From: Acidimicrobiales bacterium
Lineage (GTDB): Bacteria > Actinomycetota > Acidimicrobiia > Acidimicrobiales > WLNW01
NCBI GenBank assembly: GCA_035525225.1
Contig: DATLFA010000061.1
Span: 128,180 to 192,179 of the forward strand
Direction: 5' to 3'
DNA length: 64,000 nt
Below the pieces are notes generated by a model. It did not search any database and was not told where the DNA came from. It worked only from the letters and a program-made list of their open reading frames with translations. Every line of letters begins with the position of its first letter. The stretch's first letter is position 1. This document shows positions 2,931 to 61,126 of this stretch, in pieces. The translations under genes and the position numbers were made by a program.

Positions 2931-5321
2931 ATGCGGAGTCTGATGAAAGGGCCTATCGGCGAGATCGCGGGGACGAACCCGGCCCCGGGCGGCCCCGTCG
3001 CGCCGGTTCGGCGCCGGACGGTGCCGTGGACGCGGCTAGCGGTGATGGCCGGCGGCGCGGTGTTGACGGTGTCGCTGTTTTGGGGATTGCAGGGCGTGGG
3101 GCGCGACGCGGTGACCCCGGTGGCGGGCGCGCTGGCGGTCGCCACCATCCTCGTCGGCACGCGGCTTCACCTCAAGGGCGAATCGATGCGGTCGTTGCGA
3201 TCGTCGCCCTGGTGGCTACTCGCGGCGGGTGTCGCGGTGTTGGCGGCAACGAGTGCCGGGACCAGTGCCTCACTGTCCCACGGCGGGCTTGTCGCGTTGG
3301 CTTCGCTCGGCGCCTATCCGCTGTTGGCAATCGGGCTCTTGCGGTTGTTGTGTGTCCGGTTGCCGCACCGAAGCGCCGACGTGCTGGCACAGGCGGGCAT
3401 GACGGCGACGGTGGTCGGGTTCGGCTGCGCCGCGGTCCTCGCCCCCGAATGGCACGACACGTTGTCGGCGCCGTACGCGCTCGCGATCCTCGCGCTGCCG
3501 GCACTCGACGCCGCGCTGCTCGTCATCGCGGTGCGCGTGCTCCTCCTGCCCGGTGATCGGCTCTTCGTCTCACGCGCGGTGGTACTCGCGGTGTCGTACC
3601 TGTTGGGTGCACACCTGGCGGCGGCGATGGGGACGTTCAGTGGATGGGCAGTGCCCGACGGTGTGGTGCGCGTGCTCCTCGTGTGCTCGTTCACGTTCTG
3701 GGCCGCCGGTGCGCTCGACCCGAGCATGCGGCGGCTTGCCGATCCGCTGGCCGAGGACCCACCGACGTTCAGCACCGTTCACTTCGTCCTGATCGAAGTC
3801 GGCATGTTGGCCACGCCGATCCTCGTGGTGCTCTGCGCGCAGAGAGGCACCGTGATCACCGTGGGCGCCGCGATCGCAGCAGGCATGGTCTCGGGGGTGT
3901 TGGCGGCGTACGTCGGCCACCTGTTGTGGCAGCGGGGTGCCCTCGAGCGCAGTGCACTGCATGATCCGCTCACCGGTCTCGCCAACCGCACGTTGTTCGC
4001 AGATCGCGTTGCTCGGGCGATCGCCCACGCTCGCCGGAACAATCTGCCGGTTGCGGTGTTGCTGGTCGACCTCGATCATTTCAAGAAGGTCAACGACAGC
4101 CTCGGTCATTCTGCGGGCGACGTGTTGTTGCGTGAGGTCGCGCGACGGCTACAAGCGAGCGTGCGCGAGGAGGACACCGTTGCGCGGCTCGGCGGCGACG
4201 AGTTCGCCGTGCTGCTGCCCCACGTCGCCGGTATCGAGGCAGCGGCGTTCGTGGGCGATCGGCTGCTCGGCGCATTCGCCACGCCCGTGTCGATCGCCGA
4301 ACAACAGGTCATGGTGACGGCCAGCATCGGGCTGAGCCTGTATCCCGACGATGGCCCCGATCTCGAAGCACTCATCGAAGGTGCCGACGCGGCGATGTAT
4401 CGCGCGAAGGAGCAGGGCCGGAACACCGTCGAGGTCTTCAGCCCCGCGCTGATGACGCAGGCCCATGAACGGCTCGCCCTCGAATCCGCACTGCGCCTCG
4501 CGGTCGAGAGCGACGAGCTCGTGTTGCACTACCAACCCAAGGTCGACCTGCGCACCGGCGCCATCTGCGGGGCAGAAGCACTCGTGCGCTGGAACCATCC
4601 GGAAAAGGGGCTGCTGTTCCCGGGACACTTCGTGCCCTTGGCCGAACAGAGCGGCTTGATGGTGGCAATGGGGGAGTACGTGATTGCCGCCGCCCTCGAA
4701 CAGTTGCAGCAGTGGCGCGCCGGCGGGCTTGCGCCTCTCGTCATGTCGGTGAACATCTCGGCCCGCCAACTCTGCAGCGGGCTCGCCGACTACATCTCGA
4801 GAGCGCTGCGAATGACGGGCGTCGATCCACGGTCGTTGGAGCTCGAACTGACCGAAAGCGCGGCGGTCGAGAGCCTCGACCTGACCGCCAGCGAACTCAA
4901 CGAGTTGCGGGCAATCGGGGTGCGTTGCAGCATCGATGACTTCGGCACGGGCTATTGCGGTCTGAGCTACCTGAGCCGTCTGCCCATCGACGTGCTCAAG
5001 ATCGACAGGTCGTTCATCCACACCATGACCGCCGCTGACGCGTCGATCGTCACGGCCATCATTGCGCTAGGGCACAGTCTCGGGTTGCGCGTGGTCGCCG
5101 AAGGCGTCGAGACCCCCGAACAGCTGGCCTACCTCGCCCATCGGGGCTGCGACGAAGTGCAGGGGTACCTGTTCAGCAAACCGGTCCCCGCGCACGAATT
5201 CACACGGCTGCTGATCGAACACGCGCCGGGCGGACCTGGCCGACTGCCTGTGCGCACCATCGGCACCGCCGAAAACGGAGTGCGATTGATCGACGACCGC
5301 ACCGCAGTCGTCTTGCCATAG
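2931..5321 (+). CDS. Polytopic membrane GGDEF/EAL protein (diguanylate cyclase/phosphodiesterase)
   Basis: In-frame ATG at 2931 inside track ORF 1986..5321; the upstream part is an antisense shadow of the dehydrogenase gene. About 10 hydrophobic segments are followed by [11 protein letters not shown] and EALVRW...[13 protein letters not shown]. Start is uncertain. Confidence 0.85.
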
Positions 5322-19893: not shown

Positions 19894-21168
19894 GTGGCTG
19901 AACCGAGCGTCGACTATTCGCGGCCCAAGGGCACGCGCGACATCCTGCCGCCCGAGTCGCAGCGCTGGCGCGGGCTCGTCGGTGTCTTCGCGGACGTCGT
20001 CGAAACCGCCGGCTACGGCCACGTCGTGCCCCCCATGTTCGAGCACGTCGAGGTCTTCCACCGCATCGGTGAGGCCACCGACGTCGTGGCCAAAGAGATG
20101 TACGAACTGACCGACCGCGGCGGGCGCCGACTCGCGCTGCGCCCCGAGCAGACGGCGTCGGTCGTGCGCATGTTCGTCGAGAACCGCCCGAACGTGCCGT
20201 GGAAGGTCTGGTACGCCGGGCCCAACTTCCGCGCCGAGAACGTACAAAAAGGTCGCTACCGGCAGTTCGATCAAGTGGGCATCGAGGTGTTGGGTGTCGA
20301 CGATCCGTACCTCGATGTCGAGGTCATCGCGCTGGCGTGGCGGTTCTACGAGCGACTCGGGCTGACGCAGGTGCGTCTGGTGCTCAACTCGCTCGGCGCC
20401 GCCGGCGATCGCGGCCGCTATACCGAAGCGTTGCGCGAGTACTTCGGCCGTCACCTCGACGCGCTGTCGAGCGAGTCGCGCGAAACGCTGAACCGCAACC
20501 CGTTGCGCGTGCTCGATTCGAAGCGCGAAGTCGACCGCGAGATCGTCGTCGGCGCCCCGCGCCTTCGCGACTTCCTTTCACCCGACGCGGCTGCCGACTT
20601 CGAGACGGTGCAAGAGGGACTGCGGGCCCTCTCGATTCCATTCGACGTCGACGAACGCTTGGTGCGCGGGCTCGACTACTACCGCAAGACCACGTTCGAG
20701 TTTGGCGCCGGCGCGCTCGATGCCGCGCAAAACGCGGTCGGAGGTGGTGGCCGCTACGACGGGCTCGTCGAGGAGATGGGTGGTCCGCCGACCCCCGGCG
20801 TGGGCTTCGCAATCGGCGTCGATCGCACGTTGTTGGCATGCGACGCCGAAGGTGCCTTTGCTGCACCGGTGGCTGGTGTCGATGTCTTCGTCGTCGACAC
20901 CACCGGCGGGCGGCACGCGTCCGCGCTCACCGACGAGCTCTGGCGCGCCGGCATCAGAGCCGACCGCGCGTACGAGAACCGTTCGATGAAGGCACAGATG
21001 AAGGTGGCCGATCGTTCCGGAGCCGCGGTCGCCTTGATCGTCGGCGGCGACGAAGCCGAAGCGGGCGTCGTCACGGTCCGGCCGTTGCGCCGCCGCGAAG
21101 GCGAAACTGCCGCACAACGCCAGATCGCGCGGGCCGAAGTCATAGTCGAACTGAAGAGGACACTGTGA
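19894..21168 (+). CDS. hisS: Histidine--tRNA ligase
   Basis: Track ORF of 424 aa. PKGTRDILP, LRPEQTASVVR, FRAENVQKGRYRQFDQVG and GGGRYDGL are class II HisRS motifs. Confidence 0.95.
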   Translation: MAEPSVDYSRPKGTRDILPPESQRWRGLVGVFADVVETAGYGHVVPPMFEHVEVFHRIGEATDVVAKEMYELTDRGGRRLALRPEQTASVVRMFVENRPNVPWKVWYAGPNFRAENVQKGRYRQFDQVGIEVLGVDDPYLDVEVIALAWRFYERLGLTQVRLVLNSLGAAGDRGRYTEALREYFGRHLDALSSESRETLNRNPLRVLDSKREVDREIVVGAPRLRDFLSPDAAADFETVQEGLRALSIPFDVDERLVRGLDYYRKTTFEFGAGALDAAQNAVGGGGRYDGLVEEMGGPPTPGVGFAIGVDRTLLACDAEGAFAAPVAGVDVFVVDTTGGRHASALTDELWRAGIRADRAYENRSMKAQMKVADRSGAAVALIVGGDEAEAGVVTVRPLRRREGETAAQRQIARAEVIVELKRTL

Positions 21169-21211
21169 AGAGGGCACTGTGATTAGGACATCCGTGAAGA
21201 GGACATCGTGA
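21155..21211. repeat. Four tandem 14-15 nt units (AGAGGACAYYGTGA) bridging the hisS stop and the aspS start
   Basis: Units at 21155-21168, 21169-21182, 21183-21197 and 21198-21211. Each ends in GTGA. The first GTGA contains the hisS stop and the last contains the aspS start. Confidence 0.9.
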
Positions 21212-22974
21212 AGAGCTCTCGTATCACGCTTTCGCGCAGCACGTCGTTGCGAACCGACATGTGCGGTGAGCTGCGCGCTGCCGATGCGGGTCGCTCTGTC
21301 ACCGTGTGCGGCTGGGTATATCGCCGCCGCGAGCACAGCGAGCATCTGGCATTCGTCGACGTACGCGACCACACCGGCATCGTGCAGTGCGTCGTCGATG
21401 GCGCACGTGAGCTCCGCGGCGAGTATGTCGTGCGCATCAGGGGCACGGTGGCCCTGCGTCCCGCCGAGAACATCAACGACAAACTGGCGACGGGGGAGAT
21501 CGAGATCCACGATTGCACGGTCGAGGTGCTCTCCGCCGCAGAGACGCCACCGTTCACGATCGACGACCGCACCGACCAGGTCGATGAGAACGTCCGACTC
21601 CGTTATCGCTACCTCGACCTCCGACGCGACCGCATGCAGCGCAACCTGAGAATCCGGGCGGCCGTCAACAGCGCGATCCGGTCTGCGATGGAGCGGCAGG
21701 GCTTCGTCGAAGTCGAAACTCCCATGCTGATGCCATCGACCCCGGAGGGCGCTCGCGAGTTCCTCGTACCGTCGCGCAAGGAACCAGGCTCGTTCTACGC
21801 ACTCCCACAGTCGCCGCAACTCTTCAAGCAATTGTTGATGGTCGGTGGATTCGATCGCTATTTCCAGATCGCGCGGTGCTTGCGCGACGAGGATCTGCGT
21901 GCCGACCGGCAGTACGAGTTCATGCAACTCGATGCCGAGATGAGCTTCGTCGATCAGGACGATGTGCTCGAAGCGATCAGCGAAGCAGTGCTCGACGCGG
22001 CCCAGGTGACCATCGGTGAGCGCCCCGACGTGATCCCGCGCATGACCTGGCACGACGCCATGGATCGATTCGGCGTCGACAAGCCCGACCTCCGCTTCGG
22101 GATGGAACTCGTCGAGCTCACCCCGATGTTCGCCGCGACGTCGTTCAAGGCGTTCGCCGGGGCGGCGGCGATCAAGGCCATCCGCCACGCCGGGGCATCG
22201 TCGACGACGTCACGCAACCAGCTCGACGCGCTCACCGATCGCGCGAAGAAGATCGGTGCCAAGGGTCTCGTATGGATGCGTGTCGGCGACGAACGGGTCC
22301 TCGATTCGCCGGTCGCCAAGTTCCTCTCCGACGACGAAAAGTCGGCGATCGTCGCGGCGACCGATGCGCAGCCGGGCGACATGTTGTATCTCGTCGCCGA
22401 CGAATGGGCAATGACGTGTGACGTGCTCGGGCAACTGCGCAACGACCTGGGTCGCCCGCCCGTGCATCAAGGTCCGTACCGCTACGTGTGGATCGTCGAC
22501 TTCCCGATGTTCGTCGGCGTCGATGCGGTGACCGGCATCCCCAAACCGGCACACCATCCGTTCACCCGCCCGCATCCCGATGACATCAACCGCCTCGAGA
22601 GCGATCCCATGTCCGTGCGATCACGGGCCTACGACTTGGTGCTCAACGGCTGGGAGTTGGGCTCGGGTTCGATCCGTATCCACGAGCCCGAGTTGCAACA
22701 ACGCATCTTCAACCTGTTGGGCATCGCCCCCGACGAAGCGATGAAGCGATTCGGCTTCTTCCTCACGCCGTTCCGCTATGGCGCGCCGCCCCACGGCGGG
22801 TTCGCGTTCGGCATCGATCGCCTGGTGGCAATCCTCGCGGGTGAAGACAACATCCGTGAGGTCATCGCGTTCCCCAAGACGCAATCGGGCACCGATCCGA
22901 TGACCAACTCGCCGACGCCGGTCGACCCCAAGCAGTTGGCCGAACTGGGCTTGCGCGTCATCCCTCGCGCGTAG
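21208..22974 (+). CDS. aspS: Aspartate--tRNA ligase
   Basis: Track ORF of 588 aa with a GTG start. LAFVDVRDHTGIVQ (OB fold), FYALPQSPQLFKQLLMV, FQIARCLRDEDLRADRQ and GGFAFGIDRLV are class IIb AspRS motifs. Confidence 0.95.
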   Translation: MKSSRITLSRSTSLRTDMCGELRAADAGRSVTVCGWVYRRREHSEHLAFVDVRDHTGIVQCVVDGARELRGEYVVRIRGTVALRPAENINDKLATGEIEIHDCTVEVLSAAETPPFTIDDRTDQVDENVRLRYRYLDLRRDRMQRNLRIRAAVNSAIRSAMERQGFVEVETPMLMPSTPEGAREFLVPSRKEPGSFYALPQSPQLFKQLLMVGGFDRYFQIARCLRDEDLRADRQYEFMQLDAEMSFVDQDDVLEAISEAVLDAAQVTIGERPDVIPRMTWHDAMDRFGVDKPDLRFGMELVELTPMFAATSFKAFAGAAAIKAIRHAGASSTTSRNQLDALTDRAKKIGAKGLVWMRVGDERVLDSPVAKFLSDDEKSAIVAATDAQPGDMLYLVADEWAMTCDVLGQLRNDLGRPPVHQGPYRYVWIVDFPMFVGVDAVTGIPKPAHHPFTRPHPDDINRLESDPMSVRSRAYDLVLNGWELGSGSIRIHEPELQQRIFNLLGIAPDEAMKRFGFFLTPFRYGAPPHGGFAFGIDRLVAILAGEDNIREVIAFPKTQSGTDPMTNSPTPVDPKQLAELGLRVIPRA

Positions 22975-24759: not shown

Positions 24760-26115
24760 GTGGCCGACAATCTCTTTGCATCGGCTGCGCGCGACGAACT
24801 GAGCCGACGCGCACCGCTTGCGGCGCGTATGCGACCGACAACGCTCGACGAGATCGTCGGACAAGACCATCTGTTGGGTCCCGGCAAGCCGCTGCGGGTG
24901 TTGATCGAGCGCGATCGCCTGTCGTCGGCGATCGTGTGGGGTCCGGCCGGTACCGGCAAGACGACGTTGGCCAACGTCATCGCGCGCGCCACGGCAAAGG
25001 CGTTCGTGGCGCTGTCGGCGGTCACCGCGACGGTGAAAGACGTGCGCGAAACAGTGGCCGTTGCGCAGGACCGCCTTGGCCAGCACGGTCAGGGGACGAT
25101 CTTGTTCCTCGACGAGGTGCATCGATTCAACAAGGCGCAACAAGATGCGCTGTTGCCCGCGGTCGAGTCGGGCGTCCTCGTACTGATCGGCGCCACGACG
25201 GAGAATCCCTTCTTCGAAGTGAACCCGCCGCTGCTGTCTCGCTCGACGCTGTTCCGGCTCGAACCTCTCGACGACGATGCCATCGCCGAATTGTTGCGGC
25301 GCGGCCTGGCACTCGAGCGCGCGACGGTCACCGAGGAGGCCCTCGCCCATCTGATCACCATCGCGAATGGCGACGGACGGCACGCGCTCACGACACTCGA
25401 AGTGGCCATCGTGCTCGCGTCGTCGCGCCCGTCGACCGCGGCGCGTGCGGAGACTGCGGCTACCGTGGTCGAATTGGTCGATGCCGAGGCCGCGGCGGGT
25501 GCCAAGTCGCTGCGCTATGGCGAAGACGAGCACTACGACGTGATCAGCGCGTTCATCAAGAGCATTCGCGGCTCTGATGCCGACGCGGGGCTCTACTGGT
25601 TGGCGCGCATGCTGGAAGCCGGTGAGGACGCCCGCTTCATTGCTCGCCGCCTTGTGATCCTGGCCTCAGAAGACATCGGCATGGCCGACCCGACGAGCTT
25701 GTTGATTGCGAATGCAGCAGCGCATGCGATCGAGTTCGTCGGGTTGCCCGAGGCGCAACTCAACCTGTCCCAGGCGGTGGTGCATCTCGCGACCGCGCCG
25801 AAGTCGAATCGGTCGTACCTCGCGCTGTCCCGCGCCCAAGAAGCAGCGAAGCGAACGCGCGGTGCCGGCTTGGTGCCCGGCCATCTCCGCGATGCGCATT
25901 ACAAGGGAGCGGCCAAGCTCGGACACGGCAAGGGCTACGTCTATCCGCACGACGATCCGACAGGTTGGGTCGCGCAGAACTATCGTCCCGCCGAAGTGGC
26001 AGACGACGTGTACTACGAACCGTCCGACCACGGGCACGAATCAGTGATCGCGGAGCGCCTCGGTGCTCGGCCACCACGCAACAGCGGTGAGGGGATCAGC
26101 GATGAGCGCCATTGA
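24760..26115 (+). CDS. rarA: Replication-associated recombination protein A (AAA+ ATPase)
   Basis: Track ORF of 451 aa. RMRPTTLDEIVGQDHLLG, Walker A GPAGTGKTTLA, ILFLDEVHRFNKAQQDALLP and the MgsA C-terminal motif HYDVISAFIKSIRGSD. Confidence 0.9.
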   Translation: MADNLFASAARDELSRRAPLAARMRPTTLDEIVGQDHLLGPGKPLRVLIERDRLSSAIVWGPAGTGKTTLANVIARATAKAFVALSAVTATVKDVRETVAVAQDRLGQHGQGTILFLDEVHRFNKAQQDALLPAVESGVLVLIGATTENPFFEVNPPLLSRSTLFRLEPLDDDAIAELLRRGLALERATVTEEALAHLITIANGDGRHALTTLEVAIVLASSRPSTAARAETAATVVELVDAEAAAGAKSLRYGEDEHYDVISAFIKSIRGSDADAGLYWLARMLEAGEDARFIARRLVILASEDIGMADPTSLLIANAAAHAIEFVGLPEAQLNLSQAVVHLATAPKSNRSYLALSRAQEAAKRTRGAGLVPGHLRDAHYKGAAKLGHGKGYVYPHDDPTGWVAQNYRPAEVADDVYYEPSDHGHESVIAERLGARPPRNSGEGISDERH

Positions 26116-26578
26116 CGTTGCGGCGGTCGTCGCGATCGTGTTGTGCCTTGCCGGCGCGGCCTTATTCGCGATCATGGTCCGCCGCATGGTCCGGGCATTG
26201 CGCGACCTCGACGCACTCGCCGAGAGCCTGCGCGTCGAGGCGGTGCCGCTCGTGAGCAACCTCCGGGCCACGGTCCGTCAAGCAGGCGACGATCTGGATC
26301 GAGTCGAGGCGGTGCTCGGCAAGGCCGAGACCATCGCGACCACCGTCGATGCCGCGTCGCGGCTGACCTACCGGGCGTTGCGGCCGCCGCTGGTGAAGAC
26401 GATGGCGTTCATGTCGGGGGCCGGTCGCGCCACCCGGCGGCTGCGGGGCCTGGAAGCCAAGGCGATCGAGGCCAAGGCGATCGACGCGAAAGCCATCGGC
26501 GCGAAGGCCGGCGACAGCACTCGGCGTGAGCAGAACCCACCGCGCCGAACCCGCCGCCGGCGCCGTGGGCGGCGATAG
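26102..26578 (+). CDS. DUF948-like membrane-anchored protein
   Basis: ATG 26102 lies inside track ORF 26063..26578 and overlaps the rarA end. One N-terminal helix is followed by coiled-coil-like LRDLDALAESLRVEAVPLVSNLRATVRQAGDDLDRVEAVL and a basic tail. Confidence 0.65.
   Translation: MSAIDVAAVVAIVLCLAGAALFAIMVRRMVRALRDLDALAESLRVEAVPLVSNLRATVRQAGDDLDRVEAVLGKAETIATTVDAASRLTYRALRPPLVKTMAFMSGAGRATRRLRGLEAKAIEAKAIDAKAIGAKAGDSTRREQNPPRRTRRRRRGRR
26453..26512. repeat. In-frame 15-nt x4 minisatellite (EAKAI EAKAI DAKAI GAKAG) in the DUF948 gene tail
   Basis: Units: GAAGCCAAGGCGATC, GAGGCCAAGGCGATC, GACGCGAAAGCCATC, GGCGCGAAGGCCGGC. Confidence 0.85.
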
Positions 26579-26591
26579 GCGTCTTTCCCCT

Positions 26592-26661
26592 GCCAATGTG
26601 ACCAGCGGCGGATTATCGCCGCCAATGTGACCAGCGGCGGATTATCGCCGCCAATGTGACT
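26592..26661. repeat. R1 element: 29-nt unit GCCAATGTGACCAGCGGCGGATTATCGCC, 2.4 tandem copies
   Basis: Identical copies at 26592-26620 and 26621-26649, with a partial third copy at 26650-26661. Each holds a small hairpin (CGGCGG-ATTA-TCGCCG) and ATGTGA. A related array lies at 34369-34426. Confidence 0.9.
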
Positions 26662-26672
26662 AGCCTGGTCGG

Positions 26673-34368: not shown

Positions 34369-34426
34369 CCGAACGGCGGATTATCGCCGTCAATGTGCCG
34401 AACGGCGGATTATCGCCGTCAATGTG
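34369..34426. repeat. R1 element: two tandem 29-nt copies (CCGAACGGCGGATTATCGCCGTCAATGTG)
   Basis: Identical copies at 34369-34397 and 34398-34426. They share the 23-nt core CGGCGGATTATCGCCG[C/T]CAATGTG and the same 29-nt period with the array at 26592-26661. Confidence 0.9.
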
Positions 34427-51378: not shown

Positions 51379-51966
51379 ATGAACCGACGGCCGCTGACGA
51401 TCGTCTTGTCGGGCGCCGGCGGTGCGGGCAAAGGCACGATCGCGCGTCGCCTCGCCGAGCTCGATCACACGTTGTGGCTGTCGCGTTCGTGGACGACGCG
51501 TTCGCCTCGCGTCGACGATGCTCCGCTCGCGTATCGCTACGCCACCCGAGAAGAGTTCGAGCGCCATCGCGAACGTGGGGGGTTCCTCGAGTGGAACCAA
51601 TTCCACGACAACCTGTACGGCACCCCGGTGCCCGACCCGCCGGCCGGACACGACATCCTGCTCGAGATCGACGTCAACGGCGGGCGGCAAGTGCGCCGGC
51701 ATCATCGCGACGCTCTGTTGATCTTCGTCGAGGCACCGTCGGTGGAAGAACAGCGCCGGCGGCTGTTACGCCGGGGCGATTCGCCCGTGCAGGCCCAGGC
51801 CCGCATCCGCGAGGGCGACCGCGAGCGGCGCGACGCGAGAACGCTCGGCTACCGCTTCGTCGTCAACGACGACCTCGACAGGGCGGTCGCAGAGATCCGT
51901 CAGGCCATCGAGGAACGCCGCCCGCCGCGCAAAGCGGGCGAGCCGGGGCCAACAGTGAGACAGTGA
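51379..51966 (+). CDS. gmk: Guanylate kinase
   Basis: Track ORF of 195 aa. P-loop SGAGGAGKGT, SWTTRSPR, FLEWNQFHDNLYGTP and the overall Gmk pattern. Confidence 0.85.
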   Translation: MNRRPLTIVLSGAGGAGKGTIARRLAELDHTLWLSRSWTTRSPRVDDAPLAYRYATREEFERHRERGGFLEWNQFHDNLYGTPVPDPPAGHDILLEIDVNGGRQVRRHHRDALLIFVEAPSVEEQRRRLLRRGDSPVQAQARIREGDRERRDARTLGYRFVVNDDLDRAVAEIRQAIEERRPPRKAGEPGPTVRQ

Positions 51967-51997
51967 GGGCCAACAGTGAGGGCCAACAGTGAGGGAC
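51946..51997. repeat. 13-nt tandem repeat (GGGCCAACAGTGA) spanning the gmk stop; four GTGA motifs
   Basis: Full copies at 51946-51958, 51967-51979 and 51980-51992, plus an 8-nt partial GACAGTGA at 51959-51966 that contains the gmk stop, and a trailing GGGAC. Confidence 0.9.
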
Positions 51998-57892: not shown

Positions 57893-58498
57893 ATGGCGCC
57901 CTACGAGATACGGATCATCGGCGACCCTGTCCTCCGCCAGCGCGCGGCCGAGGTCACGCAGGTCGACGGGGCATTGGCCCGTCTCTGCGACGACATGTTG
58001 CACACGATGTACGAAGCGCCCGGCATCGGCCTGGCGGCCCCTCAGGTCGGAGTGCAAAAGCGTCTGTTCGTCTACGACGTGGGTGAAGGTCCGGGTGTGC
58101 TCGTCAATCCGGTGATCGTCGAGTCTCGCGGCACGTGGATGTACGAGGAAGGCTGCCTCTCGGTACCCGGTCTGTCGTGGGAGATCGAGCGGCCCAACGA
58201 GATCCACATACGGGGCTACGACCTCGACGGCAACGAGGTCGACATCGAGGCCGACGAGTTGCTCGGGCGCCTCTTCCAGCACGAGTTCGATCATCTCGAC
58301 GGCATCTTGCTCGTGGAGCGACTCGACGACGACCTGCGCCGGGCTGCGCTCAAGACGATCCGTGAGATGGTGCAAAACGGCACTCTGACGCACGAGAATC
58401 GCGCCCGCCTTCGCGAGGAGGCAATGGGCCCGAGCGGCCCTTCAGAGCGGGGACCGGGCCCGAGCGGTCAGACGTCGAGCGGTCTCTCGTTGCCGTGA
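57893..58498 (+). CDS. def: Peptide deformylase with a repeat-derived Gly/Pro/Ser tail
   Basis: ATG 57893 lies inside track ORF 57155..58498. GIGLAAPQVG, EGCLSVPG and QHEFDHLDG. The extra tail is MGPSGPSERGPGPSGQTSSGLSLP. Confidence 0.9.
   Translation: MAPYEIRIIGDPVLRQRAAEVTQVDGALARLCDDMLHTMYEAPGIGLAAPQVGVQKRLFVYDVGEGPGVLVNPVIVESRGTWMYEEGCLSVPGLSWEIERPNEIHIRGYDLDGNEVDIEADELLGRLFQHEFDHLDGILLVERLDDDLRRAALKTIREMVQNGTLTHENRARLREEAMGPSGPSERGPGPSGQTSSGLSLP
58426..58482. repeat. R2 element, two tandem copies (30-nt period), in frame in the def C-terminal tail
   Basis: GGGCCCGAGCGGCCCTTCAGAGCGG at 58426-58450 and a diverged copy CCGGGCCCGAGCGGTCAGACGTCGAGCGG at 58454-58482. The array ends 13 nt before the def/fmt GTGA junction. 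Confidence 0.9.
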
Positions 58499-59391
58499 CG
58501 CAACAACCGCCGCGCCATCCCCGGCGCTTGGTGTACCTGGGTACTCCCGAACTCGCGGTCCCTCCGCTGCTCGCGTTGCACGAGGCCGGATTCGAGATCC
58601 CACTGGTCGTGTCGCGTGCCGACAAGCGACGTATGCGCGGCAGTGCGCTCGCACCTTCACCGGTCAAGGCCGCGGCGCTCGAACTCGGCTTGCCGGTGAC
58701 CGATCAAGTCGACGACGTGCTGTCGGTCGATGCCGATCTCGGAGTCGTCGTGGCGTTCGGTCGTCTGATCAAGCCACACGTGCTCGACCGGTTGGCAATG
58801 GTCAACATGCATTTCTCGTTGCTGCCGCGTTGGCGCGGCGCGGCGCCCGTCGAGCGGGCGATACTGGCCGGCGATCGTGAGACCGGCGTCGACATCATGG
58901 CCGTCGAGGAAGGGCTCGACACGGGAGGTATCTACTCCGAGACGCGGGTCGCGATCGACGACGACGTCACGCTGCTCGAGCTTCGCGGGCTGCTGGTCGA
59001 GCGGGGGACGAACCTGTTGTTGGATGTCTTGCGCGACGGTATTGCCGAGCCCCGGGCACAGGTCGGTGAGCCGACGTACGCGGCCAAGATCGAGGCCCAT
59101 GAACATGAGCTCGATTGGAGACAACCGGCAGTTCAGCTGGCGCGCGTAGTACGCCTCGGCGAGGCGTGGACCACGTTCCGAGGACGCCGGCTCAAAGTGC
59201 ATCGCGCGCACGCCGTCGAGCGTTCGTCACCCGCGCCCGGCGTGCTCGACGGTGCGTTCGTCGGCACCGCGTCGGGCGCGCTCGAGCTCGTGACCGTGCA
59301 GCCCGAGGGCAAGGCGCCCATGCCGTTCACGTCATGGCGCAATGGTGCTCGGCCGACAATCGGCGAAGTGCTCGGCGCGGCAGCGCCATGA
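58495..59391 (+). CDS. fmt: Methionyl-tRNA formyltransferase
   Basis: Track ORF of 298 aa with a GTGA overlap with def. LVYLGTPELAV, NMHFSLLPRWRGAAPVERAI and TGVDIM. Confidence 0.9.
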   Translation: MTQQPPRHPRRLVYLGTPELAVPPLLALHEAGFEIPLVVSRADKRRMRGSALAPSPVKAAALELGLPVTDQVDDVLSVDADLGVVVAFGRLIKPHVLDRLAMVNMHFSLLPRWRGAAPVERAILAGDRETGVDIMAVEEGLDTGGIYSETRVAIDDDVTLLELRGLLVERGTNLLLDVLRDGIAEPRAQVGEPTYAAKIEAHEHELDWRQPAVQLARVVRLGEAWTTFRGRRLKVHRAHAVERSSPAPGVLDGAFVGTASGALELVTVQPEGKAPMPFTSWRNGARPTIGEVLGAAAP

Positions 59392-59424
59392 CCAACACCG
59401 GCGCGGCAGCGCCATGACCAATAA
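59373..59424. repeat. 26-nt tandem duplication (24/26 identical) of the fmt-stop / rsmB-start junction
   Basis: CGGCGCGGCAGCGCCATGACCAACAC at 59373-59398 and CGGCGCGGCAGCGCCATGACCAATAA at 59399-59424. Each copy contains ATGA. Confidence 0.95.
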
Positions 59425-60541
59425 GGCCGCCGACACGCGCCGGCTTGCCATCGACGCGCTGGTCCGTATCGATGCCGACGGTGCCTATGCGAACATCGTG
59501 TTGCCGCACATGTTGCAGCGAAGTCGCCTCGACTCGCGAGACCGCGCGTTCGCGACAGAGCTGGTCTATGGAACCACGCGGATGCGCCGCGCTTGTGACT
59601 GGCTCGTCGACCGGTACTTGATCGCACCGGTCGAGCCCGTGGTACGCGCCGCGTTGCGGCTGGGTGCGTATCAACTCGTGTTCGTCGAGGTCCCCGCTCA
59701 TGCCGCGGTCAACACCACGGTGAGCGCGTCACCCGCCAGGGCGCGCCGTCTTGTCAACGCGGTACTGCGCAAGGTCAGTGCGGAGACCGATCGCGCGTGG
59801 CCCGACGATGCCACCCGCCTCAGCTATCCGGAGTGGATCGTCGAGCGGCTGCGCGCCGATCTGGGCACGACCGATGCCGATGACGCTCTTGCCGCGATGA
59901 ACGTCGGCGCGCCATCGACCGTGCGCGCCGATGGTTACGTGCAAGACGAATCGTCACAACTGGTCGGTGCGGCTGTCGACGCCGCGCCGGATGAACGCAT
60001 CGCCGACACCTGTGCCGCGCCGGGCGGCAAAGCGACCGCATTGGCCGCGTCCGGAGCGCTCGTCGTGGCGAGCGACTTGCGCGCGAGCCGCGTGTCGTTG
60101 ATCGCGGCCAATCGCGAGCAGCTGGATGCGCACTCGTTGCTCGTCTCCGTCGCCGACGGTACCCGCCTGCCGTATCGCGACGCGTCGTTCGATCGTGTGC
60201 TCGTCGACGCGCCGTGTTCGGGGCTCGGCGCACTGCGCCATCGTCCCGATGCGCGTTGGCGCATCGACGAGGCTGCGCCCGATCGTTTGGCGGCGCTGCA
60301 GTTCGATTTGCTGCGCGAGGCCGAGCGCATCGTCGCGCCCGGGGGAGTTGTGCTCTACAGCGTGTGCACGCTCACCGACGCCGAAACCGTCGCCGTCGAC
60401 GCACGGGTCGAGCGCGAGTTGCCGAGCTTGGTGCCGGCTTCGCTGCCCGCGCCGTGGGAGGAGAGAGGCCGCGGCGGGCAGATCCTGCCGCAGTTGCTCG
60501 GCACCGACGGCATGTTCGCAGTTCGTTACGACAAGCGCTGA
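59414..60541 (+). CDS. rsmB: 16S rRNA (cytosine-C5)-methyltransferase RsmB/Sun
   Basis: ATG 59414 lies inside track ORF 59342..60541. NusB-like N-terminus AIDALVRIDADGAYANIVL, then DTCAAPGGKAT, DAPCSGLGALRHRPD and YSVCT. Confidence 0.85.
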   Translation: MTNKAADTRRLAIDALVRIDADGAYANIVLPHMLQRSRLDSRDRAFATELVYGTTRMRRACDWLVDRYLIAPVEPVVRAALRLGAYQLVFVEVPAHAAVNTTVSASPARARRLVNAVLRKVSAETDRAWPDDATRLSYPEWIVERLRADLGTTDADDALAAMNVGAPSTVRADGYVQDESSQLVGAAVDAAPDERIADTCAAPGGKATALAASGALVVASDLRASRVSLIAANREQLDAHSLLVSVADGTRLPYRDASFDRVLVDAPCSGLGALRHRPDARWRIDEAAPDRLAALQFDLLREAERIVAPGGVVLYSVCTLTDAETVAVDARVERELPSLVPASLPAPWEERGRGGQILPQLLGTDGMFAVRYDKR

Positions 60542-60612: not shown

Positions 60613-61101
60613 ATGTCCGATCGAGATCCCGCCGGTATCGACGCCAAGGTCTTGACCGTCTCCGATGGCGTCATCCATGGCACGCGCGAAGACAAGTCGG
60701 GGGTGGCCGTCGCGGAGTGCCTCACTCGTCACGGATTCGCAGTGGTCGACCGTCGAGTGGTGGCCGACGGTGTCGAGTCGGTCGCGGAGGCGCTTCGATC
60801 GATGGCCAAGGGTTTCGCCGGCGTGATCGTCACGACCGGCGGCACGGGCTTCGGTCCGCGCGATCTGACCCCGGAGGGGACCAAGACCGTCATCGATCGC
60901 GAGGCACCCGGCCTGGCCGAGGCAATGCGGCTGGTGAACCCACTCGGCCGGCTCTCGCGGGGCATCGCCGGCACCGTCGATCACGCACTGGTGCTCAACA
61001 CGCCGGGTTCGCCCAAGGGTACGGTCGAATGTCTCGAGGCCGTGATCGACATCGTGCCCCACGCGGTGCGCTTGCTGGTCGACGCGCCGACGCAGCACTG
61101 A
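60613..61101 (+). CDS. mogA: MogA/MoaB-family molybdenum cofactor biosynthesis protein
   Basis: ATG 60613 follows GAGGGAG, inside track ORF 60214..61101. VLTVSDG, VIVTTGGTGFGPRDLTPE and LNTPGSPKG. Confidence 0.8.
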   Translation: MSDRDPAGIDAKVLTVSDGVIHGTREDKSGVAVAECLTRHGFAVVDRRVVADGVESVAEALRSMAKGFAGVIVTTGGTGFGPRDLTPEGTKTVIDREAPGLAEAMRLVNPLGRLSRGIAGTVDHALVLNTPGSPKGTVECLEAVIDIVPHAVRLLVDAPTQH

Positions 61102-61126
61102 CGCAACACTGACGTAGCACTCGTGA
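61091..61126. repeat. 11-14 nt x3 reiteration of the mogA stop region, ending in the ribD start
   Basis: CGCAGCACTGA at 61091-61101 contains the mogA stop. CGCAACACTGA follows at 61102-61112. CGTAGCACTCGTGA at 61113-61126 contains the ribD GTG at 61123. Confidence 0.85.

Follow-up and report, generated by a model that had tools for sequence, protein, structure and literature searches.

A 64-kb stretch of Acidimicrobiales DNA (67% G+C; the whole of it is referred to here as the window) carries two head-to-tail copies of a 26-nt segment at the boundary between fmt and rsmB. It is close to certain, as far as structure and descent are concerned, that this is an old and inherited duplication of the junction between the two genes. 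On balance, and from comparison of sequences, we favor the view that the duplication has been retained as a two-step termination-reinitiation (TeRe) relay, in which ribosomes would pass from fmt to rsmB by way of a nine-codon mini-ORF whose translation we infer.

The doubled junction and its reading frames

The genes and other features of the region, in window coordinates, are the following.

57893-58498, plus strand: def, peptide deformylase (Pfam PF01327 Pep_deformylase, E=3e-49)
58495-58498, plus strand: GTGA, where the def stop TGA (58496-58498) lies over the fmt start GTG (58495); first link of the putatively coupled chain
58495-59391, plus strand: fmt, methionyl-tRNA formyltransferase, 298 aa (Pfam PF00551 Formyl_trans_N and PF02911 Formyl_trans_C)
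59373-59398, plus strand: copy 1 of the 26-nt unit, CGGCGCGGCAGCGCCATGACCAACAC, with the C-terminal codons of fmt, ATGA-1 (59388-59391) and the first codons of the mini-ORF
59388-59417, plus strand: bridging mini-ORF, MTNTGAAAP*, nine codons plus stop (by translation)
59392-59413, plus strand: spacer of 22 nt from the fmt stop to the rsmB start, of fixed length in the core clade
59399-59424, plus strand: copy 2 of the 26-nt unit, CGGCGCGGCAGCGCCATGACCAATAA, with the 3' part of the mini-ORF, ATGA-2 (59414-59417) and rsmB codons 1-4
59414-60541, plus strand: rsmB, 16S rRNA m5C967 methyltransferase family, 375 aa (Pfam PF01029 and PF01189)

The two copies, which an earlier note on this DNA had described as differing at 2 of 26 positions, are evident both in the sequence and in a direct-repeat search (spacing 26, 92% identity), where they make up the single family reported, D1. 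The first 23 nt are exact and 24 of the 26 positions agree overall, the mismatches falling at 59396/59422 and 59398/59424. With up to 3 mismatches allowed, the 23-nt core has two matches in the 64-kb window, as compared to 0.00 expected from 100 shuffles. TRF, run at a minimum score of 30, does not list the repeat, which reflects the limited sensitivity of that setting for a two-copy array and is no counter-evidence.

By translation, fmt ends in ...IGEVLGAAAP* with its stop TGA at 59389-59391. The ATG of the mini-ORF overlaps this stop, and the TGA of the mini-ORF (59415-59417) overlaps the rsmB ATG at 59414, from which the product begins MTNKAADTRR..., with a NusB domain from residue 8 followed by the Methyltr_RsmB-F domain. 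Pfam architectures above gathering thresholds confirm the identity of both fmt and rsmB. The translations agree with the fmt stop, mini-ORF and rsmB start proposed in the earlier note, and its two structural suggestions are likewise borne out, namely that an overlapping fmt/rsmB junction was duplicated in tandem and that the mini-ORF is a chimera of the N-terminus of rsmB and the C-terminus of fmt.

The geometry follows from the length of the duplication. A tandem duplication of L nucleotides placed over a stop/start overlap leaves both proteins unchanged, adds L-4 nt between them and orphans one start codon; at this junction the fmt stop remains in copy 1 and the rsmB start in copy 2, with 22 nt between them. 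When L = 2 mod 3, the frame opened by the orphaned ATG runs through copy 2 in register with the upstream gene and ends at the TGA of that copy, which makes a relay. When L = 1 mod 3, the third frame is read, and here that frame reaches a TAA at +8 in rsmB, as one relative (L163, described below) shows; the motif ATGACCAATAA in copy 2 contains this additional stop in the third frame. When L = 0 mod 3, RsmB is extended at its N-terminus. Since 26 is 2 mod 3, the ORF opened by the copy-1 ATG ends at the copy-2 TGA, directly atop the rsmB ATG. It had been remarked that the relay comes out in phase even though 26 is not a multiple of 3; the phase is indeed as described, but it is not a coincidence, because duplication length modulo 3 fixes it.

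The operon reads def-GTGA-fmt-ATGA-miniORF-ATGA-rsmB, all on the plus strand, and every link in the chain is a -4 overlap (GTGA at 58495, ATGA at 59388 and ATGA at 59414). TeRe coupling is expected where the start codon overlaps the stop or is no farther from it than about -8 to +10 nt; each of these links falls in that range, whereas the direct distance from fmt to rsmB, +22 nt, would lie outside it. The genes are co-directional and, as far as consensus scans can tell, share one transcript: such scans, which are weak evidence, gave 0 promoter-like and 0 terminator-like sites between 57600 and 60800. No Rfam family was found in the region. A search for an SD-dependent rsmB start found no Shine-Dalgarno (SD) motif above background upstream of ATG-2, where the anti-SD duplex energy, -2.7 kcal/mol, is the same as the background median. 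The next gene, MoCF, which is uncoupled from rsmB, has AGGGAG 5 nt upstream of its start. SD-less initiation is usual for many Actinobacterial genes, and the missing SD of rsmB is for that reason no proof of coupling.

Relatives and the age of the duplication

Relatives were sought by a protein-guided scan of one genome per species and in a large protein database, from which the encoding contigs were fetched. The genome scan yielded two close relatives, L001 and L002, with RsmB 86-87% identical; in each of them two ATGA motifs stand at a distance of 26 nt, with a nine-codon ORF, although the sequences differ (MTANGTTAP in L001 and MTNVGATAP in L002). The protein database contains a tight RsmB clade (P0001-P0019) at 79-100% identity, after which there is a gap down to 67%. 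Three members on fetched contigs, L165, L166 and L164, have the 26-nt double junction with the same mini-ORF, MTNTGATAP, so that an ATG-to-ATG distance of 26 with a nine-codon ORF is common to the window genome, L165, L166, L164, L002 and L001, the RsmB proteins of these five relatives being 86-91% identical. In L163 the distance is 25, and an 11-codon ORF ends at a TAA 8 nt into rsmB, overlapping that gene by 11 nt. A single junction is found in L161, L162, L167 and the P0014 contig, in the form of an 11-nt fmt/rsmB overlap, ATG(A/G)C(C/G)AATAA; P0014 and P0018, both on JGI contigs, are known from gene tables alone. In a scan of metagenome contigs the relatives found were all at or below 68% identity, and none had the double junction. 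An exact search with the Fmt protein of the window matched no contig.

It had been expected that relatives would show a single ATGA junction. This is true of more distant ones, but the closest (RsmB 84-91% identical) have the double junction, and the nearest relatives with a single junction have the 11-nt overlap ATGNCNAATAA in place of ATGA. Sharing of the double junction by the closest relatives indicates that the event is old and has been retained, rather than being a fresh mutation or an assembly error. Neighbor-joining of RsmB plus Fmt places the period-26 genomes in one clade with 99.5% bootstrap, the window genome being basal. Values of dS between the period-26 lineages are 0.58-0.77, with identity of about 0.6 at 4-fold sites, and the duplication, judged from these comparisons, is older than the radiation of the clade.

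That the two copies are almost identical in the window genome (23 nt, as compared to differences at 4-7 of 26 positions in the relatives) is no sign of youth. A recent, independent duplication in the window genome was considered and rejected: its copy-1 tail is AACACC, as in L165 and L164, and its copy-2 tail is AATAAG, and the shared AACACC tail points to one and the same old duplication. The window copies have probably been partly homogenised, by gene conversion or slippage. The earlier note was thus right about the kind of event and wrong in expecting it to be private and recent.

Among 137 dereplicated fmt-rsmB junctions from the Acidimicrobiia, 114 show direct overlap of the two genes: 100 with 4-nt (A/G)TGA, 11 with an 8-nt and 3 with a 1-nt overlap. 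From this distribution a single overlapping junction is clearly the ancestral state.

Relay, relic and other readings

The course of events that we favor is as follows. In an ancestor of a small Acidimicrobiales clade, about 26 nt over the fmt stop and rsmB start were duplicated in tandem. The rsmB gene, presumably lacking a ribosome-binding site of its own, would be reliant on termination-reinitiation; a ribosome ending fmt would restart at ATG-1, read nine codons, stop at ATGA-2 and restart on rsmB. As a ribosome relay the mini-ORF would preserve, and probably attenuate, the coupling of rsmB to def-fmt. Its peptide would be a by-product, and selection would act to keep ATG-1, an open frame and a spacing of 26 nt.

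The main rival is that the duplication, although real and old, is a functionless relic, with rsmB initiating by itself at ATG-2 and the mini-ORF being the unavoidable by-product of a length of 2 mod 3. Its persistence would then be put down to limited time, gene conversion between the copies and a GC-rich sequence with few stops. We hold this to be unlikely, and yet a substantial contender. Part of the evidence that bears on it concerns constraint within the clade. ATG-1 depends on an A as the last base of the final fmt codon, a codon that reads CCA in five genomes and, in L163, TCA; L164 has the A within GCATGA, downstream of a shifted fmt stop. This A occupies a synonymous third position, and A accounts for 8% of 4-fold sites; only 1 of 302 such sites has A in all six lineages, and an A at a 4-fold site in the window genome is kept by relatives in 16-28% of cases. 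Conservation of ATG-1 could nonetheless have come about through gene conversion from copy 2 instead of selection. In the 22-nt spacer, 12 of 22 positions are invariant, as compared to 34% at 4-fold sites (p=0.04, from few and related lineages), and there are zero indels in 5 lineages. Other spacers of the operon vary in the same genomes, being 70, 71 and 246 nt at rsmB-MoCF and 9, 9, 10 and 21 nt at MoCF-ribD. These observations point to constraint on the double junction, the statistical signals on the spacer being weak at p of about 0.04.

Two relatives have rearranged junctions. In L164 the fmt stop lies 17 nt earlier, at a GTGA, and a six-codon ORF (GTG AAC GGA GCC GGC GCA TGA) reaches ATG-1, which gives a chain of three reinitiation steps as predicted from the ORF layout. 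The rearranged variant L163 also closes its chain, by way of the TAA that overlaps rsmB. That both keep a chain speaks against a relic, as does the expectation that, at dS of 0.6-0.8, neither a neutral 22-nt spacer nor the rare A that makes ATG-1 would have stayed intact, and as do the changes in length of other spacers of the same operon in the same genomes. In favor of a relic are the homogenisation suggested by the 23-nt identity of the window copies against differences at 4-7 of 26 positions in the relatives, the only marginal significance of the spacer and ATG-1 tests, and a predicted folding that is ordinary. At the locus the fold z is -0.3, which is not unusual. A GG(Y)GC-N4-GC(R)CC hairpin beside each ATGA is 97% paired, with no two-sided covariation and no excess over shuffle controls; the data allow it as a conserved RNA structure without supporting it, and it was set aside.

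A further line of evidence comes from gapped fmt-rsmB junctions in other lineages, of which the bridged ones are these.

L006: repeat ATGAGATGAG, period 5; bridge of 2 codons
L151/153: repeat CGTGAGCGCGTGAGCA, period 8; bridge of 3 codons
L137/140: repeat of period 11; bridge of 4 codons
L141: repeat GTGACCGACCGATGACCGAC, period 11; bridge of 4 codons plus a 38-codon ORF
L014/129: repeat not evident; bridge of 4 codons, ending in an 8-nt overlap
L018, L082, L118 and L010: repeat not evident; bridges of 23, 19, 52 and 62 codons, respectively

The independent junction duplications of periods 5, 8 and 11 (L006; L151/153; L137/140 and L141) are all 2 mod 3. Among the 137 dereplicated junctions, about 10 independent events leave a gap bridged from NTGA to NTGA, as compared to 2 that leave it unbridged (L057 and L084); L104/L107 and L047, which were called as "chains" automatically, are really -8 overlaps and were not counted as relays. 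At the rsmB-MoCF junction of the same loci, taken as a control, 1 gapped case is bridged and 30 are unbridged (Fisher p=4e-7). If gaps arose by junction duplication alone, half of the visible events would be relay-compatible, and against this null 10 of 12 gives p=0.02. In a start-agnostic scan covering 721 NTGA gene ends, duplicated junctions at 2 mod 3 amounted to 6-8 events, as compared to 2 and 2 in the other classes (p=0.02-0.08). The bridging of about 10 of 12 independent gapped fmt-rsmB junctions, against 1 of 31 at the control junction, is a further point against the relic.

It is very unlikely that the product of the mini-ORF is functional, whether as a micropeptide or as a regulatory leader peptide by which the status of translation or formylation is sensed. 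There is moderate similarity within the clade, M-T-(N/A)-(T/V/N)-G-(A/T)-(A/T)-A-P, the ORF is located between two genes of translation initiation, and reinitiation in E. coli requires formylation (PMC2268962). Both ends of the peptide, however, copy the ends of the neighboring genes, replacement and silent changes are about equal (~7 and ~6), the peptide of L163 is different and has 11 residues, and the independent relays elsewhere are unrelated sequences of 2-23 codons. As for a leader peptide or attenuator, which would be recognized by alternative structures, a terminator or regulatory codons, a search of the locus found no attenuator, terminator or alternative structure.

A start of rsmB farther upstream, inside fmt (ATG 59342 or GTG 59345), would place the repeat within RsmB coding sequence and leave no relay. 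The frame is open back to 59342, and one cluster of homologues (P0006) is called 15 aa longer; even so, this reading is highly improbable, since these two codons are missing at that position from L001, L002 and other relatives, 15 of the 18 proteins in the clade have a called length of 375 aa and share one N-terminus, the M(T/A)NKAADTRR N-terminus is conserved even where there is no duplication, and the NusB domain begins at residue 8. The assignment of the rsmB start to the copy-2 ATG in the earlier note accordingly stands. The chance that the repeat is an artefact of assembly or sequencing, collapsed or stuttered and absent from the organism, is negligible: nothing beyond the general risk of metagenome assembly speaks for it, and six further assemblies with the same architecture and diverged sequence come from independent studies and different assemblers (NCBI MAGs, ENA and Logan), which for practical purposes excludes it.

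Other junctions, known systems and broader meaning

Between the hisS stop at 21166 and the aspS GTG at 21208, the window contains a second array, of 4.5 units of a 14-nt sequence, TGAAGAGGACAC(T/C)G, one unit being 15 nt. Each unit has a GTGA and a GAGGA motif, and the array contains a five-codon ORF, MKRAL*, which starts like aspS and ends like hisS, together with a ten-codon ORF that ends on the aspS GTG. In L168 (HisS 90% identical) the same junction is a plain single GTGA overlap; L169 (86%) has a different, 12-codon bridge made of units of 15 and 20 nt in a three-unit form. Between relatives, then, unit number and form vary, yet the chain of reading frames is kept.

Other repeats at gene ends were also observed. 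At the MoCF-ribD junction (61089-61121) there is an 11-nt repeat, present three times and containing CTGA, which is found in the window genome only and forms no canonical relay; a 13-nt GTGA repeat lies at a convergent gene end at 51940-51995.

Tandem repeats at gene ends are frequent in the window genome even where they form no canonical relay, which is a point in favor of the relic and indicates that mutational supply, through slippage, explains part of the pattern. The same logic at fmt-rsmB in other lineages and at hisS-aspS suggests a general outcome, in which duplications made by slippage are filtered for relay-compatible lengths.

Coupling by termination and reinitiation at NTGA and TGATG motifs is established (Huber et al. 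2019, PMC6728339; 2023, PMC10666635; reviewed in PMC12548453). Like the pairs described there, fmt and rsmB are co-directional, lie in one operon, share ATGA and include a downstream gene without a recognisable SD, and the chain uses only the -4 geometry, which is the commonest one. The difference is that two successive reinitiations by way of a nine-codon spacer ORF are predicted here, instead of one. In tested gene pairs of E. coli and Haloferax, coupling is all but lost when about 20 nt lie between the genes (PMC10666635), whereas at fmt-rsmB an ORF fills such a gap and would restore it; short uORFs are known to be able to hand ribosomes to a -4-coupled downstream gene (PMC12548453).

The closest known cases are the mycobacterial MIRUs and "ribosome delivery" by uORFs. 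MIRUs (Supply et al. 1997), as summarised in PMC12548453 and PMC3184786, are short intercistronic repeats in polycistronic mRNA, with an internal ORF that overlaps the upstream stop and the downstream start, so that coupling to the flanking genes survives the extra DNA; their tandem copy number is variable, as it is in the hisS-aspS array. In those summaries MIRUs are units of 40-100 bp, dispersed in 40-50 copies per genome and apparently inserted with target duplications. The mini-ORF at fmt-rsmB has the same double overlap, but the unit is 26 nt long, with two local copies in 64 kb (up to 3 mismatches), and it repeats the very junction at which it lies (the C-terminus of fmt with the N-terminus of rsmB) rather than being a foreign insertion with a target-site duplication. 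In the "empty" relatives L161, L162 and L167 the N-terminus of rsmB is the same and the fmt tail is related, and the other junctions each use a local unit of their own. By analogy, the locus would work like a MIRU, although it differs from one in size, dispersal and mode of origin.

The "ribosome delivery" by mycobacterial uORFs (Shell et al. 2015, as described in PMC12548453) resembles the proposed relay in that a short ORF ends on the target start codon, and in synthetic bicistronic design cassettes an otherwise meaningless short ORF likewise hands the ribosome over. In both of these the short ORF is initiated de novo, being leaderless or having its own SD, whereas the fmt-rsmB mini-ORF would itself start by reinitiation from the upstream gene. 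The two-codon minigene of axe-txe (PMC8708949) is also a very short ORF within an operon for which phase and distance to the downstream cistron matter, and it resembles the 2-4-codon relays of L006, L151 and L137; it differs in that mRNA protection is proposed for it, with no stop-start hand-over and no origin by duplication. We found no description of relay ORFs born by tandem duplication of the overlap itself in a literature coverage that was incomplete, which is absence of evidence only.

As a single locus, the doubled fmt-rsmB junction would be a curiosity. What makes it a general pattern that can be tested is its conservation, together with the recurrence at fmt-rsmB and the other array in the window. 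Stop-start overlap is the commonest gene spacing in prokaryotes, and the locus and its relatives amount to a natural experiment in which the fmt-rsmB overlap has been pulled apart, almost always leaving a chain of mini-ORFs, whereas a neighboring junction whose downstream gene has its own ribosome-binding site has no such chain; this is evidence, from comparison, for a dependence of some genes on reinitiation. The locus further illustrates how duplications of a junction can be tolerated and that a perfect, seemingly "fresh" repeat may be of old date and homogenised; for annotators, it is a reason to keep ORFs of 2-25 codons between genes of the overlapping type.

A broader proposal, which we regard as doubtful and put forward with reserve, is that junction stuttering is a general and selectable route by which the translation of operons evolves. 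Slippage would duplicate stop-start overlaps; where the downstream gene needs reinitiation, only lengths of 2 mod 3, or chains that sum correctly, would survive; and every extra relay step would multiply downstream output by the efficiency of reinitiation. If this were true, arrays of variable copy number such as that at hisS-aspS (1 unit in L168 and about 4.5 in the window genome) would tune protein ratios in a heritable way, as a chromosomal and self-generated counterpart to MIRU-VNTRs, and the fmt-rsmB junctions would be natural evidence for a strict dependence of rsmB on reinitiation in the Acidimicrobiia.

Junction duplications and bridging ORFs in related Acidimicrobiia

Short tandem duplications of NTGA junctions have arisen independently in further lineages of the Acidimicrobiia, at fmt-rsmB and in part at other gene pairs, with periods of 5, 8, 11, 11, 5, 20 and 5 nt. 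All seven periods are 2 mod 3, the class compatible with a relay, and the relay ORFs that result are 2-4 codons long.

NTGA-junction duplications in loci of related genomes
L006, L137/L140, L141 and L151/L153, ~2950-3130 in each locus: fmt-rsmB junction
L071:2145, L119:4383 and L155:4858: further NTGA junctions

Longer bridging ORFs, with NTGA overlaps at both ends, extend from the fmt stop to the rsmB start in four other loci (23 codons in L018, 19 in L082, 52 in L118 and 62 in L010), and these could be either small real genes or long relays. The nearest relatives that lack the duplication have instead an 11-nt overlap of fmt and rsmB, ATG(A/G)C(C/G)AATAA (L161:1501-1511, L162:1501-1511 and L167:151-161), so that each of the two alternative frames meets a stop at the 5' end of rsmB (TGA at +1 and TAA at +8), and a ribosome arriving in either wrong frame terminates on the rsmB start region.

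The hisS-aspS array

Between hisS and aspS lie 4.5 copies of a 14-nt unit, TGAAGAGGACAC(T/C)G, each of which contains GTGA and an SD-like GAGGA. The array yields ORFs of 5 and 10 codons, giving the chain hisS->ORF1->ORF2->aspS.

Features of the hisS-aspS junction in the window
21152-21215: 14-nt array
21166: hisS stop
21208: aspS GTG start

One relative has a single GTGA overlap at this junction (L168:2415-2560) and another a 12-codon bridge of other make (L169:2420-2565); the number and form of the units differ among relatives, and the chain is kept in every case.

Candidate chains and dispersed repeats in the window

An automatic scan between GC3-defined genes flagged further candidate multi-step NTGA chains, which could reflect chance or misplaced starts.

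Candidate NTGA chains in the window
26113-26252, + strand: 47 codons
38950-39127, + strand: 25 + 35 codons
56741-56540, - strand: 62 + 5 codons

In the last of these, GTGATCCCGAGCGGGTGACCGAG is possibly a degenerate 14-nt junction duplication.

Tandem repeats of 29 nt form two arrays between genes, 7.7 kb apart (26592-26664 and 34369-34426, with 2.5 and 2 copies, 97-100% identical). The arrays share the core GGCGGATTATCGCC and CAATGTG(A) and constitute a dispersed repeat family; the core has 4 exact occurrences, where 0.9 would be expected even with as many as 2 mismatches allowed.

Tandem repeats at gene ends

At 51940-51995 a 13-nt unit, CAACAGTGAGGGC, is repeated ~3.8 times (100% identity over 2.8 copies). 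The repeat lies at the 3' end of an ORF on the + strand, which faces a convergent gene, and GTGA turns up repeatedly in each of the three frames. A third junction repeat, in the operon of fmt and rsmB, is at the MoCF-ribD junction, with three 11-nt units (ACGCAGCACTG, ACGCAACACTG and ACGTAGCACTCG) that are specific to this genome.

Features of the MoCF-ribD junction in the window
61089-61121: 11-nt repeat
61099: stop of the MoCF-domain gene
61123: ribD GTG start

Because the TGA here follows a C (CTGA) and the frame is broken by a TAG, no canonical relay is formed; the repeat shows slippage at gene ends to be a common event in this genome.
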